DNA of 64,000 nucleotides from Polyangiaceae bacterium (GTDB taxonomy: Bacteria > Myxococcota_A > Polyangia > Polyangiales > Polyangiaceae), in NCBI GenBank assembly GCA_965222375.1, contig CBDCTZ010000013.1, positions 736,001 to 800,000 on the forward strand, in the 5' to 3' direction. Under the pieces are notes generated by a model. The model worked only from the letters and a program-made list of their open reading frames with translations, did not search any database and was not told the DNA's origin. Position numbers and translations under genes: made by a program. Positions 928-26,350 of this stretch are shown in pieces (the stretch's first letter is position 1; each line of letters starts with the position of its first letter).

Positions 928-1510
928 GTTCGCCCCCGATCAAGAACAGTTTTTCACGCGCGGAAACCTTGGTCAAAAAATGGTTTCGCGGAGCGAGCTT
1001 GGCGGCTAACTCCGCGGGCGTGTACACCACTGCGTTCACCTCGCGGCGAGTTTCTTCCTCCGCGCCGCGTATTGCGTCGACGACTTCCGCAAACGTTACG
1101 TCTCCAACAACGAGCAGGTCGATGTCACTGTGTTCGTTCTCGGTGCCTCGAGCCAACGATCCAAAAATGAAGGCGACCTCGATGCGATCGGTCAGCGGCA
1201 CGAGTGCTTGCGCCAAGACCGCCGCAGCTCCCAGTGTCTTGCGCACGATCGTCCGCAACTCTTCGAAGATGGGGCATGCAGCGTCAGCTTGAAAGTAGAC
1301 GTGCTGGCCATCGCGGGTTCGTCGGATGATGTTCGCGCGAGAAAGCCGCTCGAGTTCTCGCTGGATGCTGCCGACGCCGAGTCCCGTCAGCGACACGATT
1401 TCCCGCAAGTAGAAGCGCCGATGCGGTTGACCGAAGAGCAGCCCCAGCACGCCCTGCCGCGCCTTGGGGAAAAGGGCGGCCGGTATCGCACTGGCGACGA
1501 ATGAACCCAT
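899..1510 (-). CDS. wHTH + minimal nucleotidyltransferase (MNT) protein, putative antitoxin/autorepressor
   Basis: N-terminal HTH (FYLREIVSLTGLGVGSIQRELERL) and Pol-beta NTase motif FGSLARG...SDIDLLVVG; overlaps the HEPN-like gene start. Confidence 0.85.
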   Translation of the reverse strand: MGSFVASAIPAALFPKARQGVLGLLFGQPHRRFYLREIVSLTGLGVGSIQRELERLSRANIIRRTRDGQHVYFQADAACPIFEELRTIVRKTLGAAAVLAQALVPLTDRIEVAFIFGSLARGTENEHSDIDLLVVGDVTFAEVVDAIRGAEEETRREVNAVVYTPAELAAKLAPRNHFLTKVSAREKLFLIGGEREFAALSRQ

Positions 1511-1541
1511 TATGGGTACATTTGTACTCGAATTGAGTACA
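1502..1541. promoter_or_regulatory. Two tandem 19-bp palindromic operators at the MNT start
   Basis: TGAACCCATTATGGGTACA (1502-1520) and TGTACTCGAATTGAGTACA (1523-1541), 21 bp apart. Confidence 0.7.
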
Positions 1542-1657
1542 CCTAGCAACCTTCGCCAGTGCCGGGGCCTGGCCCCGCACTAGACTAGGGGCCCAACGCC
1601 GCCCCGGCGCCACGACCCCAACCAACCAACACCATCAAACGCCGGGCTGATTCGACT

Positions 1658-2686
1658 TCAGGGCTTCCAGTCCGGAGGCGGGCTGGGGACGGGGATGCAT
1701 TTCTGCTCGGTGGCCAAAGCGCTGTAGGCGCTTTCAGCGGGATAGGAATAGCCGAAGAGCATGCACATTTCGTTGTCGCCAATGCCTTCGACGATGGTCT
1801 TGTTGTGGGTGTTCTTCCAGGTGCAGCCAAAGCGCCAGCCGTTGCCTTGGGAAAGGTCGATGGCGGGCTCGTAGGAGTAGATGTCACTGGCTTCGTCGAA
1901 ACCGGTGTCTTCGAGGAAGATTTCGCCGTCCTTGTCGCCGCCCACGTAGCTGATGAAGAAGCGCTCGCCCAGGGCATGCATGTGCGGCATCGCGTCGACG
2001 ATCTTCATGGGCTCGCCGATCCAACACTCTGTTTCGACGGAATGCTCACTCTTCGGGGGAATTTCGAAGTCCTGAATCGCCCAGAAGAATGGCGCGATCT
2101 CCTGAGTCACGTCCTCCTCAGGCACGGTGAACCACTCGTACTTGGGGGCGACGGTGATGGGTTTTGCGGACGTGTTCAGGTAGTGCAGCCGGGCAACGAT
2201 CTCGTAGCCATCCTTGATGCGATAGGCCTGACCTGGACTGAAACGACGCCACTCGGTGCCGACCAGCTGCGTGGAAGAGCCGAAAAGGACGCTGCCCCCA
2301 CCAAGCACGTCCCCGGCTTCGCCGCCGAAGACTCCACCCTTGCCCTTTTCGCAGGGGCGGATCCCTTCACCGGTCTTCTTGCGAGTGGTCAGATTGCCGT
2401 GATGGAGGCCAGCGGTGGTGGTCAGGCTGGCTCCGCCCACGAAGCGACTCGGCCCGTTCAGCTCGAGGGGGAAAACCCAACACGGAGTCTTTTCGTCCCC
2501 GGGCTGCAGCGTGATTTCCGGGACCTGAATCGAAAAACCACCGATCGCGTTCGGCGGCGGTCCCTGCCCAGGCAGGGTGCCCGGCATGCCAGCGCCGCCG
2601 CCAGGCGTCGTCGGCTCGGACTCGGACCCACAACCCGACAGCAACGCCAGGCAGACAGCCGGTAGAAAAGGAATCAAGTAGCGCAT
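1658..2686 (-). CDS. Lipoprotein with copper type II ascorbate-dependent monooxygenase-like (PHM/DBH) fold
   Basis: Lipobox LLSGC; GLHHG, LHY, MPHMH and NEMC copper-ligand motifs. Confidence 0.75.
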   Translation of the reverse strand: MRYLIPFLPAVCLALLSGCGSESEPTTPGGGAGMPGTLPGQGPPPNAIGGFSIQVPEITLQPGDEKTPCWVFPLELNGPSRFVGGASLTTTAGLHHGNLTTRKKTGEGIRPCEKGKGGVFGGEAGDVLGGGSVLFGSSTQLVGTEWRRFSPGQAYRIKDGYEIVARLHYLNTSAKPITVAPKYEWFTVPEEDVTQEIAPFFWAIQDFEIPPKSEHSVETECWIGEPMKIVDAMPHMHALGERFFISYVGGDKDGEIFLEDTGFDEASDIYSYEPAIDLSQGNGWRFGCTWKNTHNKTIVEGIGDNEMCMLFGYSYPAESAYSALATEQKCIPVPSPPPDWKP

Positions 2687-2780
2687 GACTCAGCAGGCGA
2701 CGCCGCCTGCATCCAGTGTGACGCATTTCGGCGCTGCCGCGCAGTTCTATACGTTCTGCATTTACAGAATGCAAGTCGCG

Positions 2781-2838
2781 AAAAAAACCCGACCACAAAA
2801 AGGGTCCAGGGCGACCCGGTCACCCGGATCGCCCTGGA
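2781..2838 (-). terminator. Intrinsic terminator closing the minus-strand non-coding transcript
   Basis: Minus strand: UCCAGGGCGAUCCGG-GUGA-CCGGGUCGCCCUGGA (15-bp stem) followed by CCCUUUUU and a second U7 tract. Confidence 0.75.
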
Positions 2839-2849
2839 GGAAGTTTACG

Positions 2850-3480
2850 TTTTGCCGATGGTGGACGTCTGTCCCGACATTTCTGCCTCGCATGCATCAG
2901 CCTCCCTCGACACGCTTGCTGCGTTCCGAAGGCATCATCATCTCAATGTGGGCTCTCTATCCCCAGGACCCGCCAATTCGCGCTGGCTTGATCCGGGCAG
3001 GGAGCAGAGTCGTTAGCTCGTGCTCGCTTCGGCGAAGAGCGCCGACGATGCACCTCTGTTTCTACATCCGCCACATTTCTGCGACGGCGCGTGTGCTGAC
3101 CTCCCGCGTCGAATCGACTGGAAAAGCCTTTACCGCCATAACCGCTCAGCCTCTGACGTTTTATGTCGCCTCACAGACACCGCAGGCAGCGCTTCAGTCG
3201 CTGCTCACAGCTGGCTAATTCGTCGTAAACGCTTGCGCGCTCCGTCTCGAACTTCGCATTCACCTGCTTGGCCAGAGCTGCGCTGACACCGAACGGATTA
3301 AGATCAGTGCTGCTCACAACTCAAAACGCCTCGAACCGTACTAGACAGGAACCCCGCAGGTTACCCCGCGGATCGACACTTATCGTTCGTTGTTCACGAA
3401 TTAACAAGCATCGCGCACCCGTTCGCCTGACTCGCACCGCGACAGTTCTTTCAAAACTGCCTCGGCCACCATCGTGCTAG
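2850..3480 (-). ncRNA. Candidate large structured ncRNA B (~630 nt), family not recognised
   Basis: Ends pair (2856-2864 with 3466-3474); GUAA, GCAA, UUCG and GAAA-containing hairpins with G-U pairs favouring the minus strand; no credible ORF. Confidence 0.6.
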
Positions 3481-3554
3481 ACCGCATGTTACGTGCGCCT
3501 TACGGCACTCGCTCACACGGCCAAAGATGCGTCCGGCCGGTTCGTGCAACCCAC

Positions 3555-3570
3555 ATGTCAAAGAAGAGCA
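3555..3570 (-). promoter_or_regulatory. boxA-like antitermination sequence upstream of ncRNA B
   Basis: Minus strand UGCUCUUCUUUGACAU resembles the rrn boxA (UGCUCUUUAACA). Confidence 0.4.
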
Positions 3571-3669
3571 CCCGAATTCATATGTGAAAATCTTCCCGCG
3601 CAAGGCGAGAGATGAGCGCTTTCACTTCACGGCAAGAAGCGCCCGCTTCGGTCGGCAATGAATAGATTT

Positions 3670-4400
3670 GTTTTTACCTCTCCGAGTTCAACCAACCGCT
3701 TTTTAGGCGTGTTGAATCCGGCGACGTAGAGGGCCGACCTCTGACGCCTTCGTCACCGCCACTTCCGAACCCCGATCTCTCGAAAGCCCTTCCGTGACGA
3801 CCAAGACCGCCTCCACGACCCATCCGTGAAGATGAACCGCTTGCAGCAACCCAAGGCGCCTTCCACCGACGAGGAGACTTTCTAGGTCCCTTTGCGAGCT
3901 TAAGGTGAGAACTCACGTCCCCTGCCCGCTCACGACGCCATTTCGCTCGCCCCGATGTTTCCACCCGGGTTCGCTAGATTCTGCCACTCGCCCTAGCCGC
4001 AACCAGGGTTTGCGTCCGAATCCGACGCCGCTCGTCAACTTCTGCTTTCAAAACACATGATCGAGCACACCAACTCAGCTCGACTCCTCACACGGAACCA
4101 CGCTTTAACGCATCCCGCTGCCCCAAGCCCGAGGGCTTGTTGCCGTGAGCGACACGACACCGGAGTTACCCCCGGCTGGCCCGCGAAGGACCTGCCGCAT
4201 CGGCCGAGAACAGTGGAGCCAGCTGTGCGTACTGCGACGCAGAGGCCGACTCGTGCCGTTCTCGAACACCTCTTTGTCGCGAGTCATCTGCCGGTCCGGG
4301 GCTGAAGTTAATTCATCCGGCGGCCAGGATGCTCGCCAAGGCCCCTCCGCTTCACCGTCCGCGCGAACGGAACAGGCTGGCCGAGAGACCGAGGTGTCTG
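3670..4400 (-). ncRNA. Candidate large structured ncRNA A (~730 nt), family not recognised
   Basis: Hairpins CCGGGG-GUAA-CUCCGG (4160-4175), GGUG-GAAA-CAUC (3951-3969), CAAGCC-CUCG-GGCUUG (4124-4139); long-range ACACCUC/GAGGUGU pairing; no credible ORF. Confidence 0.5.
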
Positions 4401-4553
4401 ACTACTCTAGGGGGCCAAGCCGAGGGCAAGCTCGGCAGGACCGGGACCGCCTATGAACCCCCACCCGCGCTCACGCGCTCAGTCGTTCGGTTTAGGTGGG
4501 GAGGTCAGTCCGCACGCCATTTTTCGCTCGGATGCTGGAGGGCGTTGAAGCGC

Positions 4554-4576
4554 CCAACTGCCCACTGGGCAGTTGG
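4554..4576. promoter_or_regulatory. Perfect 11-bp inverted repeat, probable protein-binding site
   Basis: CCAACTGCCCA-C-TGGGCAGTTGG. Confidence 0.5.
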
Positions 4577-4779
4577 TCCCAACTGAAATCCGGCGGTGGT
4601 TCTACCGTGTCGGTGGAAAAGGCTTGCGACCTTTCCGAACCCGACCGGTGCTCCACGGCGCCCCTGGGTTGTCAACGAACCGTTCGCTTGTTGGCAGATG
4701 TGCCGCGAACTTCCGAAAACAGTTATGCCTCGAAGGGCCCATGCTGCGCAACACAAAACAACTTTCGTTTCGGAATTTG

Positions 4780-4799
4780 TTATCCACAGGCTATCCCCA
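4780..4799 (+). promoter_or_regulatory. DnaA box pair
   Basis: Perfect TTATCCACA at 4780-4788 and degenerate CTATCCCCA at 4791-4799. Confidence 0.5.
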
Positions 4800-5049
4800 G
4801 GTTGATGATGAGCGCCTCGACGTGGGCGCGGAGCTATTGATTCAAGTGCTTGAAGTCATTGCTAATTGTAGCGAGTCGCAGAGTTCCGCCGAGCGCCATT
4901 AGCTGCACTGTTGCATTTGTTTATATCATTTGTTTATCGTGTCTTAAGTCAATAAGAAAGCGTGTTTGATGCTTCGTCTGAGCAGAAGCTTGGCGCCGGC
5001 TGACGGCATCGCGCTCAAGGATCTCCAAACAGCACCGTTCAGCTGATTC

Positions 5050-6324
5050 ATGGTGGCCCACGCTCCGAGCTATGCCCTCACACCCCAAACAGCAGTGACC
5101 GAACGACCCCGGAGTGAACGGACTACATCCGCCCACCCTGCGCCTCACAGCATCAGCTCCGTTTCCCGCACGGCCAAGCGTGGCTCGGTGCTTGTCGTGG
5201 ATGACGATGCCATGCTGCGCCGCAGTCTCGATCGCGCTCTGTCCGCGGAAGGCTACGAAGTCGTGACATGCCCAGACGGTCACTCCGCCATCGCGCGCCT
5301 GATTGAGCGGCCCGTGGATGTGATCGTGAGCGATATCGCGATGCCGGGAATGGACGGGATCCAGCTGCTCCGCGAAGTACGCACCCACGACCTTCACGTA
5401 CCGGTCGTCCTGATCACTGGCGAGCCTGCGGTGTCGACCGCAGTTCAAGCGCTCGAGTACGGAGCGTTCCACTACTTGACGAAACCGGTGGACCCCCACG
5501 AGCTGGACAAGGTCATCGAGCGTGGCGCACGCCTTCACCGAATGGCCCAAGTCAAAGAGCAAGCGGCCGAGTTGCTCGGAAACCGTGGGGGCAGAGCGGC
5601 GGATCGTGCGGGCCTGGAAGCCAGCTTCGAGGGCGCACTGGCCACGCTCTGGATCGCCTACCAGCCCATCGTTTGCGCGCGAAACCAGACCATCTTCGGC
5701 CACGAGGCGCTGCTCCGCAGCGATGAGCCCAGCCTACCTCACCCGGGTGCCGTCATCGACGCGGCCGAACGCCTGGGGGAACTGCAAAAACTCGGCCGCG
5801 CGATCCGAGATCGTGCAGCTGTGCCTGCGCAGGAGCGGCCCCATGCTGCGAGAACCCTATTCGTCAATTTGCACGTCCACGACCTGCTTGACCCGACACT
5901 GGTCAACCCAGACGCGCCCCTGTCGAAGATCGCTGACCGAGTCGTGCTGGAGATCACCGAGCGCTCGAGCCTCGACGAGGTCAAGGACGTGCGCAATCGC
6001 GTACTGGCACTCCGGGAGATGGGTTTCCGAATCGCCGTCGACGACCTGGGTGCAGGCTACGCAGGACTAACCAGCTTCGCTCAGTTGGAGCCGGAGGTCG
6101 TGAAACTCGACATGAGTCTAGTGCGCGACGTGCACCGCTCCTCCACGAAGCAGAAGGTCATTCGGTCGATGGCCAGGCTGTGCCAGGACATGGGAATGCT
6201 CGTGGTCGGTGAGGGCGTCGAGAACGCCGAGGAGCGCGATACGCTGATTGAGCTGGGCTGCGACCTGTTGCAAGGCTTCTACTTCGCGAAACCCGCACGA
6301 CCGTTTCCGAGCGTGAGGTTCTGA
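5050..6324 (+). CDS. Response regulator with EAL c-di-GMP phosphodiesterase domain
   Basis: REC (VVDDD, SDIAMPGMDG, KP) plus HEALLR, DDLGAG, KLD, EGVE, QGF. Confidence 0.93.
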   Translation: MVAHAPSYALTPQTAVTERPRSERTTSAHPAPHSISSVSRTAKRGSVLVVDDDAMLRRSLDRALSAEGYEVVTCPDGHSAIARLIERPVDVIVSDIAMPGMDGIQLLREVRTHDLHVPVVLITGEPAVSTAVQALEYGAFHYLTKPVDPHELDKVIERGARLHRMAQVKEQAAELLGNRGGRAADRAGLEASFEGALATLWIAYQPIVCARNQTIFGHEALLRSDEPSLPHPGAVIDAAERLGELQKLGRAIRDRAAVPAQERPHAARTLFVNLHVHDLLDPTLVNPDAPLSKIADRVVLEITERSSLDEVKDVRNRVLALREMGFRIAVDDLGAGYAGLTSFAQLEPEVVKLDMSLVRDVHRSSTKQKVIRSMARLCQDMGMLVVGEGVENAEERDTLIELGCDLLQGFYFAKPARPFPSVRF

Positions 6325-6325
6325 G

Positions 6326-7405
6326 ATGGCTTTGCGCTCCTATGCGCCACCGTCCTTTCAGCCTGAGTCCGGGGCGCGCTCCGCCCTCTTGCCGGAGCCG
6401 CCGCCCTCGGCTGCCTACCCAGCCTCGAGTACGGGAACGACCACGCCAGAAATGGCCGCTGTGCGCGTGCCCGCTTCGGACATTCCTGGCGACAACCTCG
6501 ACTCGTGGGAGGAAATCACGGACGTCGCGCGCCTCACGGAGGTTGGAGAGCCCCCGGCGGCAGTGGATGGCCGGGATCGGGCAGTGCTTCTGCGCGCTGA
6601 CGGCGTGGGTGCGGGACAGGTCCTCTCCCTAGGTGCAGGAGGCGCCGTGGTGGGGCGAGCACCGGACGCAAGTATCCACCTCGATGACGCAGGAGTGAGC
6701 CGCCGCCACGCCCGCTTGACGCCCACACTGTCGGGACGCCACTTCATCGAAGACCTCGATTCGAGCAACGGTACCTTCGTGAGGGGTCAACGTGTCGAAC
6801 GCGCCTGGCTTCAGGATGGCGACATGATCCAGCTGGGGCCGCGCGTCAGTTTTCGCTACGTCGTAGTCGATCAATCCGGCGAGGCGCTGTTTCGCCAGCT
6901 CTACCAGTCCAGCGTCCGGGATTCTCTGACGGGAGCGTACAACCGCCGACACTTCGACGAGCGCCTGACCGCGGAGCTCGCCTACGCGGATCGGCACAGC
7001 ACTGATCTATCCCTGGTCTTGTTCGATATCGACCACTTCAAGAAGGTCAACGACAACTTCGGTCATCCTGCCGGCGACGCCGTTCTGTGCCACGTCGTCA
7101 AGCTGGCTCAACGCGAACTTCGAGCGGAGGACGTCTTTGCCCGCTACGGTGGCGAGGAGTTCGCGATGTTGCTGCGAGGGGTTGGGCCGTCAGGCGCCGT
7201 CCGCGCAGCAAGTCGCATTCGAACGACGATCGAGGCAAACGCGAGCCAACACGAGGGCCGCATGATTTCTGTGACCGTGAGTGGCGGTGTCGCGTCGTTG
7301 AGCGAGACCGCAGAGCGCTCGGCTCAAACCCTGGTCGGGCGGGCAGATGCACGGCTGTATCGGGCCAAGCACGAGGGCCGCAACCGCATGATTTCGCGGG
7401 GCTAG
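6326..7405 (+). CDS. FHA-domain diguanylate cyclase
   Basis: FHA (GR...VSRRHA...SSNGT) plus DIDHFK, RAED I-site and RYGGEEF. Confidence 0.93.
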   Translation: MALRSYAPPSFQPESGARSALLPEPPPSAAYPASSTGTTTPEMAAVRVPASDIPGDNLDSWEEITDVARLTEVGEPPAAVDGRDRAVLLRADGVGAGQVLSLGAGGAVVGRAPDASIHLDDAGVSRRHARLTPTLSGRHFIEDLDSSNGTFVRGQRVERAWLQDGDMIQLGPRVSFRYVVVDQSGEALFRQLYQSSVRDSLTGAYNRRHFDERLTAELAYADRHSTDLSLVLFDIDHFKKVNDNFGHPAGDAVLCHVVKLAQRELRAEDVFARYGGEEFAMLLRGVGPSGAVRAASRIRTTIEANASQHEGRMISVTVSGGVASLSETAERSAQTLVGRADARLYRAKHEGRNRMISRG

Positions 7406-26277: not shown

Positions 26278-26350
26278 GCCTCCGTAGCTCAGTGGATAGA
26301 GCAGTGGTTTCCTAAACCATTGGTCGCAAGTTCGACTCTTGCCGGAGGCG
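26278..26350 (+). tRNA. tRNA-Arg(CCT)
   Basis: GCCTCCG/CGGAGGC acceptor stem, anticodon loop TTCCTAA, GTTCGACTC T-loop; no encoded CCA; TTGACC-N17-CAAAGT promoter candidate at 26232-26260. Confidence 0.96.

Follow-up and report, generated by a model that had tools for sequence, protein, structure and literature searches.

Genomic locus and extent of the unit

The window analysed here, a 64,000-nt stretch from the genome of a Polyangiaceae bacterium (assembly GCA_965222375.1, contig CBDCTZ010000013.1, positions 736,001 to 800,000), carries on its minus strand a long untranslated unit that is the subject of this report; all coordinates are those of the window. The host genome comprises 10.5 Mb, is gene-dense and has a G+C content of 64%. 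Between a same-strand lipoprotein gene downstream, which ends at 2686, and a divergent gene for a response regulator with an EAL domain, which starts at 5050, there is a tract of about 2.3 kb that is free of open reading frames (ORFs). The longest ORF within 2690-4900 encodes at most 114 amino acids, no ORF is conserved, and the minus strand of the tract shows a strong skew of G over C (33.8% G and 26.2% C on the RNA strand, with a plus-strand GC skew down to -0.29).

An earlier note, made from the letters of the window alone, had placed here a tandem operon of two large RNAs, A and B, joined by a spacer and processed from one precursor. Its description of a long, structured, untranslated unit that ends in a terminator has been borne out, and no reverse transcriptase, nuclease or transposase gene lies beside the RNA, as it had stated; its limits have been redrawn, because conservation and a terminal helix put the 5' end near 4714 instead of 4600, with promoter elements reaching 4800, and the length is about 1.9 kb instead of about 1.6 kb. 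The minus strand from 4714 to about 2797 is very probably one stand-alone gene, encoding a structured non-coding RNA (ncRNA) of about 1.92 kb that represents a new family. The features of the locus are collected in Table 1.

Table 1. Features of the RNA unit and its upstream region, in order of transcription (window coordinates; two-sided changes are alignment changes on both sides of a pair).
Feature	Position	Strand	Details
DnaA-box-like array (putative)	4780-4800	-	perfect TGTGGATAA at 4788-4780; degenerate TGGGGATAG at 4799-4791, 11 bp upstream, same orientation
Putative sigma-70-type promoter	4722-4751	-	-35 TTGCGC at 4751-4746; 18-nt spacer; -10 CATAAC at 4727-4722
RNA 5' end, 5' strand of terminal helix P1, GGAAGUUCGC	4705-4714	-	AAGUUCGCGG invariant; block invariant in 39/39 sequences
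Domain I (predicted), ~627 nt	4069-4695	-	closing helices 4695-4685/4079-4069 and 4682-4677/4086-4081
Domain II (predicted), ~500 nt	3568-4068	-	15-bp closing helix 4068-4053/3584-3568, 3' strand GGGUGCUC
boxA-like motif UGCUCUUCUUUGACAU	3555-3570	-	domain II/III junction; internal loop, flanks in extended helix 3570-3546/2956-2931
Domain III (predicted), ~610 nt	2946-3556	-	closing helix 3556-3546/2956-2946, two-sided changes in 10/10 pairs
Two 3' hairpins	2932-2903, 2901-2854	-	canonical cells 74% and 82%; two-sided changes in 11/11 and 6/7 pairs
P1 3' strand GUAAACUUCC	2839-2848	-	pairs with 4714-4705; 2-5 nt before terminator stem
Intrinsic terminator	2795-2838	-	15-bp G+C-rich stem 2838-2805, GUGA loop, U run 2801-2797

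A single closed molecule

The joining of the two ends of the unit was followed in 39 non-redundant full-length sequences, which were aligned with MAFFT and reach down to about 47% identity to the window. The invariant 5' end pairs with the segment just ahead of the terminator to form helix P1, whereby the whole unit becomes one closed molecule; since P1 connects the beginning of A with the end of B, it further makes the unit one RNA and not two. At least five contiguous pairs of P1 are present in 36 of the 39 sequences and at least seven in 26, and segments of 15 nt taken elsewhere in the RNA attain a pairing as long as that observed in a median of 4.8% of cases. Compensatory changes occur in four lineages, as GAAAG/CUUUC, CGAAG/CUUCG, AUGAAG/CUUCAU and one U-G pair.

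No internal duplication of note relates the two halves. The 10-mer GTTTTGAAAG, reported earlier as common to A and B, does stand at 4054-4045 and 3457-3448, but its meaning as a shared element is lost, as about two such repeats are expected per 2 kb by our own arithmetic and the repeat is not kept in other members of the genus. The reading of A and B as paralogous halves was thus rejected, given the lack of an internal repeat and a shared 10-mer that is coincidental and confined to one genome.

Consensus secondary structure

RNAalifold, applied to the 39 sequences over 4705-2797, returned 454 consensus pairs, for which controls were generated by sliding the 3' partner by 1-3 columns. Canonical cells amounted to 84.9% (40.5-42.8% when slid), further pair types to 1,158 (737-800 when slid), and pairs with two-sided changes to 400 of the 454 (281-300 when slid), while 34 of the 81 helices were strongly supported, that is, with at least 85% pairing together with at least two covarying pairs. 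In a cross-validation, a fold of 674 pairs derived from five genus sequences alone was scored on the other 34 sequences and gave 71.4% canonical cells, as compared with 39.7-42.7% for its slid versions; the 63 long-range pairs of this genus-only fold reached 78.5% in the same 34 sequences, as compared with 39-41%. Short MAFFT blocks yielded only 14, 10 and 6 pairs in RNAalifold, and the domain map therefore rests on the full-length and cross-validation analyses.

In the resulting model, the RNA is composed of three domains of about 630, 500 and 610 nt, each closed on its own, with the 3' hairpins and the terminator after them. Domain I contains the palindrome CCAACTGCCCAGTGGGCAGTTGG, which had been regarded as an element leading the operon; its place at 4576-4554 stands, although it turns out to be a variable, genus-specific hairpin about 140 nt inside the RNA. 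The supposed spacer between A and B is actually the 3' strand of the helix closing domain II, a helix that has 85% canonical cells and two-sided changes in 12 of its 15 pairs and is supported again in the cross-validation. The paired ends ascribed to RNA B correspond to the closing helix of domain III, in which every pair shows two-sided changes. Domain III also includes the hairpin GTGCC-GTAA-GGCGC (3508-3495, minus strand, with a GUAA loop), found as described, and hairpins at 3027-3000 and 2995-2963 whose CUAAC-type and GCGCGAA loops are conserved; as a single sequence the domain folds with z = -3.2, and none of 20 shuffles was as stable. Five of the 36 hairpin loops are GNRA-capped, and no reiterated loop motif was found among the 36.

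At the end of the conserved unit, the G+C-rich stem-loop with its U-run tail is an intrinsic terminator, as had been proposed earlier: 11 of its 15 pairs are G-C, 95% of cells are canonical, and 11 of the 15 pairs show two-sided changes in the 39 sequences. About 10 nt past the T run, a second run of seven T at 2787-2781 comes together with an 18-nt insertion that is present in this genome only among six genus sequences. A further local variation concerns domain III, into which about 100 nt are inserted in three sequences of genus g75 (L043, L044 and L054; alignment A2 columns 201-306); the insertion reads CCUUUGACG followed by GGUGCUC-like letters and recalls the junction motif (GGGUGCUC...UCUUUGA) with its order swapped.

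Distribution and conservation

Nucleotide searches with blastn matched about 2.0 kb of the unit in all five other genomes of the genus, at 85-69% identity, and pieces of it in 27 of 383 genomes and 8 of 89 genera across the family; a profile hidden Markov model (nhmmer) resolved these pieces into full-length homologues with the same order of parts. An exact 17-mer of the invariant 5' block occurs at 96 loci in 185,579 species genomes, of which 46 are homologues by nhmmer. The labels of these 46 are Polyangiaceae, Labilithrix, Polyangiales, Polyangia, Myxococcales, 'delta proteobacterium'/Proteobacteria, and uncultured or unnamed metagenome-assembled genomes, which fits the Polyangiaceae as the lineage in which the unit was expected to recur. 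The other 50 loci carry the 17-mer in unrelated phyla and show no homology by nhmmer, whereas all 41 of the 17-mer loci that carry flanks show full-length homology in the same order.

Two covariance models were further built, R1 from the 3' part of B (103 positions, 3034-2934) and R2 from the 5' end of A (101 positions, 4716-4612), and searched in even samples with strict filters, under which a genome in which nothing is found does not equal a genome without the RNA. R1 was found in 42 of 151 family genomes (29 of 89 genera) and R2 in 60 of 151 (40 of 89 genera), with one match per genome in each case. When the two tables were compared by hand, 41 of the 42 R1-positive genomes were also R2-positive, with both matches on the same contig and strand and R2 lying 1,256-2,574 nt upstream; in the sole R1-only genome (G164), the R1 match is 540 nt from the start of the contig. 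Upon rechecking 14 of the 19 R2-only genomes by nhmmer, nine gave clear matches to the 3' half and one (G134) a weak match; of the remaining four, G327 matches near the terminator only and G047 not at all. The other two, G233 and G329, carry divergent or short forms: in G233 the 5' motif is about 0.9 kb from a terminator-like match, and in G329 nhmmer found no 3'-half match. Shortened or remodelled forms of the RNA may thus exist. Divergent versions were observed in three very large complete genomes, namely L174 (G233, 16.0 Mb), L175 (G329, 13.6 Mb) and L173 (G327, 12.2 Mb).

Beyond the family, an even sample of the order gave R1 matches in 7 of 128 genomes, distributed over families f2, f5, f11, f14, f18, f23 and f24; no R1 match was obtained in f3 (0/15), f7 (0/10), f9 (0/23), f17 (0/23) or f22 (0/22). 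All 20 R1 matches that were fetched proved to be full-length homologues of about 1.7-2.9 kb. A and B are therefore co-conserved and collinear wherever both are detectable, which agrees with the co-occurrence and fixed order that the earlier note had proposed to check, in the R1/R2 comparison and at the nhmmer loci alike. The RNA matches no described family and is a vertically inherited gene of the Polyangiales, present in the Polyangiaceae and sister families.

Non-coding status and known RNAs

A coding or pseudogene reading was ruled out, as substitutions lack a three-base periodicity: in a six-sequence alignment of the genus, variable columns number 297 of 640, 315 of 642 and 324 of 641 in the three codon phases, and no 300-nt window of this alignment departs significantly from an even spread. 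The 4,227 models of Rfam 15, including those for ribosomal RNA (rRNA), RNase P, tmRNA, 6S, group I and II introns, OLE, GOLLD, ROOL and HEARO, were searched over the whole window at gathering thresholds and gave only a transfer RNA (tRNA) at 26278 and nothing in the unit; at E<=10, over 2300-5300, the only match was a terminator-like one of 19 bits to sX12 (gathering score 106). That the unit might be a divergent RNase P RNA, tmRNA or rRNA was dismissed, since the host genome has its own RNase P RNA, tmRNA, 16S and 23S elsewhere, and no tRNA or tRNA-like element was found within the unit. A literature search, in listings and the opening parts of abstracts, returned no report of such an RNA.

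The tract is single-copy in its own genome by blastn, as in the R1- and R2-positive family genomes, and searches of plasmids and phages gave no match to the RNA unit; synteny around it is partly kept. These findings, together with neighbouring genes that encode a response regulator with an EAL domain, an FHA-GGDEF protein, a lipoprotein or a FadL-like outer-membrane protein, excluded an RNA with a guide or structural role in a mobile element (IS200/605 omega RNA, bridge RNA, group II intron or retron), and neither a decayed coding sequence nor a mobile one, the outcomes named earlier as fatal to an RNA operon, describes what was found. Two copies of about 1.7 kb each by nhmmer (L168 and L169) were seen on different contigs of one genome of family f14 (G037), the sole multi-copy case encountered.

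Transcripts in environmental RNA libraries

Thirteen sequencing runs recorded as RNA, from marine, sediment and plastic samples, contain 31-52% of the sampled 31-mers of the unit; two further sludge runs with words of the unit were flagged as probably DNA. Contigs of four runs from three studies, chosen for containing the stretch, were placed on window positions 1000-7000, and all placed contigs lie within 2854-4705. Run X1 provides a single contig of 1,798 nt that covers 2903-4697 at 98% identity and a word depth of 893, X2 contributes two contigs (1,225 and 536 nt; depths about 1,000-1,080), and X5, from a study other than that of X1, has a contig over 3158-4558. The contigs of X1 and X5 span the proposed boundary between A and B, so that the two tandem RNAs of the earlier note, already joined through P1 from the 5' end of A to the 3' end of B, are also bridged by single contigs; its processing of the unit finds no evidence in the contigs.

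At the 5' side, the match to the unit ends at 4704/4705 in contigs of X1 and X2, which there pass into adapter letters, and at 4704 in small contigs of X5. Libraries of complementary DNA (cDNA) usually lose extreme 5' ends, and the 10-nt gap between 4714 and 4704/4705 may reflect this usual loss or a real processing event. No contig nearly identical to the window extends beyond the unit, and those of X1 and X2 include no outside sequence, while X5 contigs run into unlike sequence at 3574, 4652 and 2977, one of them belonging to a divergent homologue. The flanking genes, and 3524-3681 in the low-depth run X11, are covered by no contig, which does not count as evidence, and the flanks of relatives may differ. 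The RNA probably accumulates as a stable species. In the sediment run X5, the similarity of another contig (1,827 nt, word depth 369) to the window is confined to 2977-3038 and 3545-3574, and this contig seems to derive from a divergent homologue of the RNA in a different organism.

The boxA-like motif

A boxA-like motif, TGCTCTTCTTTGACAT, is present at 3570-3555 on the minus strand as had been noted, and the antitermination attributed to it can be judged against the boxA elements of the host rrn operon, GGTCCTTGAAAACTGAG (GGUCCUUGAAAACUG) in the leader and GGTTCTCTGACAACTGAAAG (GGUUCUCUGACAACUG) in the 16S-23S spacer. By hand alignment, the motif matches 11 of 16 positions of the spacer copy and 9 of 13 of the leader copy. 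The resemblance is partial; the motif is neither in a leader position nor universal, and it forms a loop in a helix. Its UCUUUGA-type core (UCUUUGAA) occurs in 27 of the 39 lineages and is replaced in 11 (by the CGUACGAAG type, GUAGUCG or a deletion), with UCCUUGG in one. The flanks pair with 2956-2931, and this pairing is retained through compensation (AUGUGGG/CCCACAU, AUGCAGG/CCUGUAU, ACGUGA/UCACG, CGUC/GGCG and CGUAC/GUAUG); replacement of the core while flank pairing is kept indicates a structural constraint.

The U-rich core thus constitutes an internal loop of the helix closing domain III, which explains its conservation without Nus factors, and the motif is above all a structural element that may also bind protein. 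Transient binding of NusB/NusE during transcription, while the 3' strand is still unmade, is conceivable but unlikely. Lying about 1,150 nt from the RNA 5' end, the motif is not promoter-proximal; such a position, in a transcript that is G-rich and densely paired, speaks against a classical antitermination leader. Near the 5' end, a separate stretch, GGUUCGUUGACAACC at 4681-4667 (minus strand), shares 12 of 15 positions with the rrn spacer boxA GGUUCUCUGACAACU; this stretch is kept in the genus only and is base-paired in the consensus fold.

Putative promoter and upstream boxes

Transcription probably starts at about 4715-4713 from the putative sigma-70-type promoter listed in Table 1. In an alignment of 28 sequences, the TTG and an upstream TTTT are conserved, as is an ATAA-type hexamer about 18 nt downstream. 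A sigma-54 or extracytoplasmic function (ECF) promoter at the invariant 5' block was discarded by eye because the spacing does not fit.

Upstream of the promoter, 9-mers that are clustered and phased form what appears to be a DnaA-box-like array. The DnaA-box consensus 9-mer is TTATCCACA, of which TGTGGATAA is the reverse complement; the perfect box occurs 10 times in the 10.5-Mb genome, and boxes with at most one mismatch 410 times. The TGTGGA of the box is invariant in 28 of 28 homologues, and of the 57 distinct homologues whose upstream sequence is long enough, all but one (56) carry a box with no more than one mismatch and 26 carry two or more. The boxes always lie on the RNA strand, at -75/-77, -87/-89, -99 or -110 from the invariant block, one helical turn apart. 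On this arrangement, DnaA, or another reader of TGTGGAnAA, might oligomerise on one to four same-sense boxes in steps of 11-12 bp, centred about 70-105 bp upstream, and occupancy of the boxes by DnaA would tie expression of the RNA to the replication cycle.

A linkage of the locus to oriC was rejected, as the RNA and dnaA are separated by 2.8 Mb, 16 kb and 3.2 Mb in three well-assembled genomes. A genome-wide search at no more than one mismatch found no larger cluster of boxes and no obvious oriC. At G000:C15:939266-939286, some 450 bp ahead of the match to the dnaA domain, TGTGGACAA (one mismatch) and TGTGGATAA stand on opposite strands 12 bp apart.

Possible function and alternative explanations

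The RNA belongs to the class of large 'ornate' ncRNAs, being longer than 500 nt, non-coding, encoded by a stand-alone gene and folded into many helices with compensated pairs. OLE is reported to work in a ribonucleoprotein (RNP), and GOLLD, ROOL and OLE to form homo-oligomeric assemblies (PMC9723947, PMC12054373, PMC12286853). By analogy, there is about an even chance that the present RNA serves as the architectural or catalytic core of an RNP or an RNA-only assembly, whose working surfaces would be the junction loops together with the invariant single-stranded blocks; a role as a base-pairing regulator is less likely. A bolder proposal, in which a three-domain RNA of 1.7-2.9 kb with joined ends would be a third RNA machine of rRNA size, the catalytic or architectural core of a new RNP or RNA-only particle made in step with replication through a DnaA filament, is rather doubtful at present.

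Several points weigh against the single-RNA interpretation and its extensions. The covariation of P1 is thin, its 5' strand being almost invariant, with four compensated lineages and an outer U-U mismatch in 6 of 39 sequences; the cDNA ends at 4704/4705 fall about 10 nt inside the predicted start, and the mature RNA might lack the 5' strand of P1, or P1 might form in a precursor only. The relatedness and divergence of the sequences inflate the counts of covarying pairs, as seen in the slid controls (also 281-300 of 454), and the MAFFT alignment is not structure-guided, with support taken from the slid controls and not from significance values of the R-scape type. Expression rests on metatranscriptome assemblies of relatives, by which strand, level and exact ends are not resolvable. 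In some large complete genomes (G233 and G329) the RNA is present in divergent or short form only, and across the examined loci no protein gene adjoins it consistently. At the promoter, the hexamers are weak matches that a consensus promoter scan does not list, and binding of DnaA to the boxes is deduced from their letters.

Among the alternatives, a tandem operon would yield a precursor protected from Rho by NusB/NusE on the internal boxA and cut in the linker to release two RNAs that perhaps cooperate. The likeness of the motif to host rrn boxA, the presence of its UCUUUGAA core in 27 of 39 lineages, and its location directly upstream of the 5' strand of the long-range helix closing the 610-nt domain speak in its favour (boxA likewise lies ahead of rRNA processing stems), as does the separate closure of domains I+II and of domain III. 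Nevertheless, P1 brings the 5' end of A into pairing with the 3' end of B, the linker is bridged by contigs from two studies, and the motif is replaced by the CGUACGAAG type or otherwise in 11 of 39 lineages with flank pairing kept; placed 1.15 kb from the 5' end, it would also protect only the last third of the transcript. G-rich and densely paired RNA, as found here, is a poor Rho substrate, and helices of 10-15 bp, the size of the closing helices, are short for RNase III. The tandem operon is quite improbable. No greater credence is given to a single RNA that acts as a regulator by sequestering protein in the manner of 6S RNA or CsrB, or to a locus that titrates DnaA with the transcript being secondary. 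The apparent abundance in RNA libraries, the conserved and phased DnaA-box-like array and the presence of only 10 perfect boxes in the genome would be in keeping with such roles, but about 450 conserved pairs, three domains and invariant junctions go far beyond the needs of known sponges, no loop is reiterated, a DNA-only site would not maintain 1.9 kb of compensatory changes, and most homologues carry only one or two boxes.

The absence of ORFs over such a long stretch of a gene-dense genome (64% G+C), together with the same-strand gene at 2686, could also point to a protein gene in decay, to what is left of a mobile element, or to a very long leader that acts in cis on the downstream lipoprotein gene. 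Hardly any weight can be attached to this reading: there is no codon periodicity, purifying selection on base pairing is seen down to 47% identity, the RNA has one copy per genome and no plasmid or phage match, and a strong conserved terminator precedes a next gene that differs between genera. The single, end-joined RNA remains the preferred interpretation.

Comparison with known systems

To our knowledge, the largest conserved structured bacterial RNAs besides rRNA, namely OLE, ROOL and GOLLD, are about 600-800 nt long. The Polyangiales RNA resembles them in its stand-alone gene, hundreds of conserved pairs, invariant junction blocks and GNRA-capped hairpins, and likewise in its apparent abundance, restricted taxonomic range and lack of a function obvious from sequence. 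It has no sequence or model match to any of them, however, and at 1.7-2.9 kb is about three times as long as OLE (about 600 nt) and more than twice as long as GOLLD (about 800 nt). Unlike these RNAs, it has three rRNA-like closed domains in the predicted fold, a terminal helix and an upstream DnaA-box-like array, and it is found in Polyangiales (Myxococcota), is not associated with phages and lacks conserved adjoining partner genes.

With rrn operons, the unit shares a long, untranslated, highly structured and apparently abundant transcript, domains closed by long-range helices, and, immediately ahead of the 5' strand of one such helix, a U-rich boxA-like motif. It differs in having no 16S or 23S similarity, no tRNA and no processing sites seen, and in a motif that is internal (+1,150), present in 27 of 39 lineages only and embedded in a helix. 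Same-sense DnaA boxes at one-turn spacing also occur in oriC. The upstream region is similar to DnaA-regulated promoters in its perfect TTATCCACA-type 9-mer, repeated one to four times in one orientation at 11-12 bp upstream of the -35, and a perfect box stands also just upstream of the dnaA match, beside the one-mismatch TGTGGACAA; in contrast to such promoters, this one would govern a giant ncRNA, at a locus without linkage to oriC.

OLE, ROOL and GOLLD each led to unexpected biology, and the Polyangiales family is two- to three-fold larger, apparently abundant in marine and sediment RNA libraries, and spread over many genera of an order noted for its large genomes and complex behaviour. For structural studies of natural RNA folds the family is a new target, and it is likely to represent a new RNP or ribozyme. 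If the DnaA boxes are functional, they would link the replication initiator directly to an ncRNA. The family is present in complete single-contig genomes, which may render genetics feasible if these derive from cultured strains.

Neighbouring genes

On the plus strand, 5050-7405 holds a divergent pair of cyclic di-GMP (c-di-GMP) genes, encoding the response regulator with an EAL domain and then an FHA-GGDEF protein. The response-regulator-EAL gene may share with the RNA the intergenic region that bears the DnaA boxes. It adjoins the RNA in 8 of 17 loci (six genera) and in 1 of 20 further loci. The convergent gene downstream in other genera encodes a FadL/TodX-like outer-membrane protein. A conserved protein partner in the neighbourhood was ruled out, given that the EAL gene adjoins in 1 of the 20 further loci and that downstream genes vary between genera. 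Between the terminator and the lipoprotein gene, all six genus sequences have an inverted repeat, TTCTG-N7-CAGAA, at 2773-2753 (minus strand), which overlaps TGCAT/ATGCA and may be an operator or promoter element of that downstream gene.

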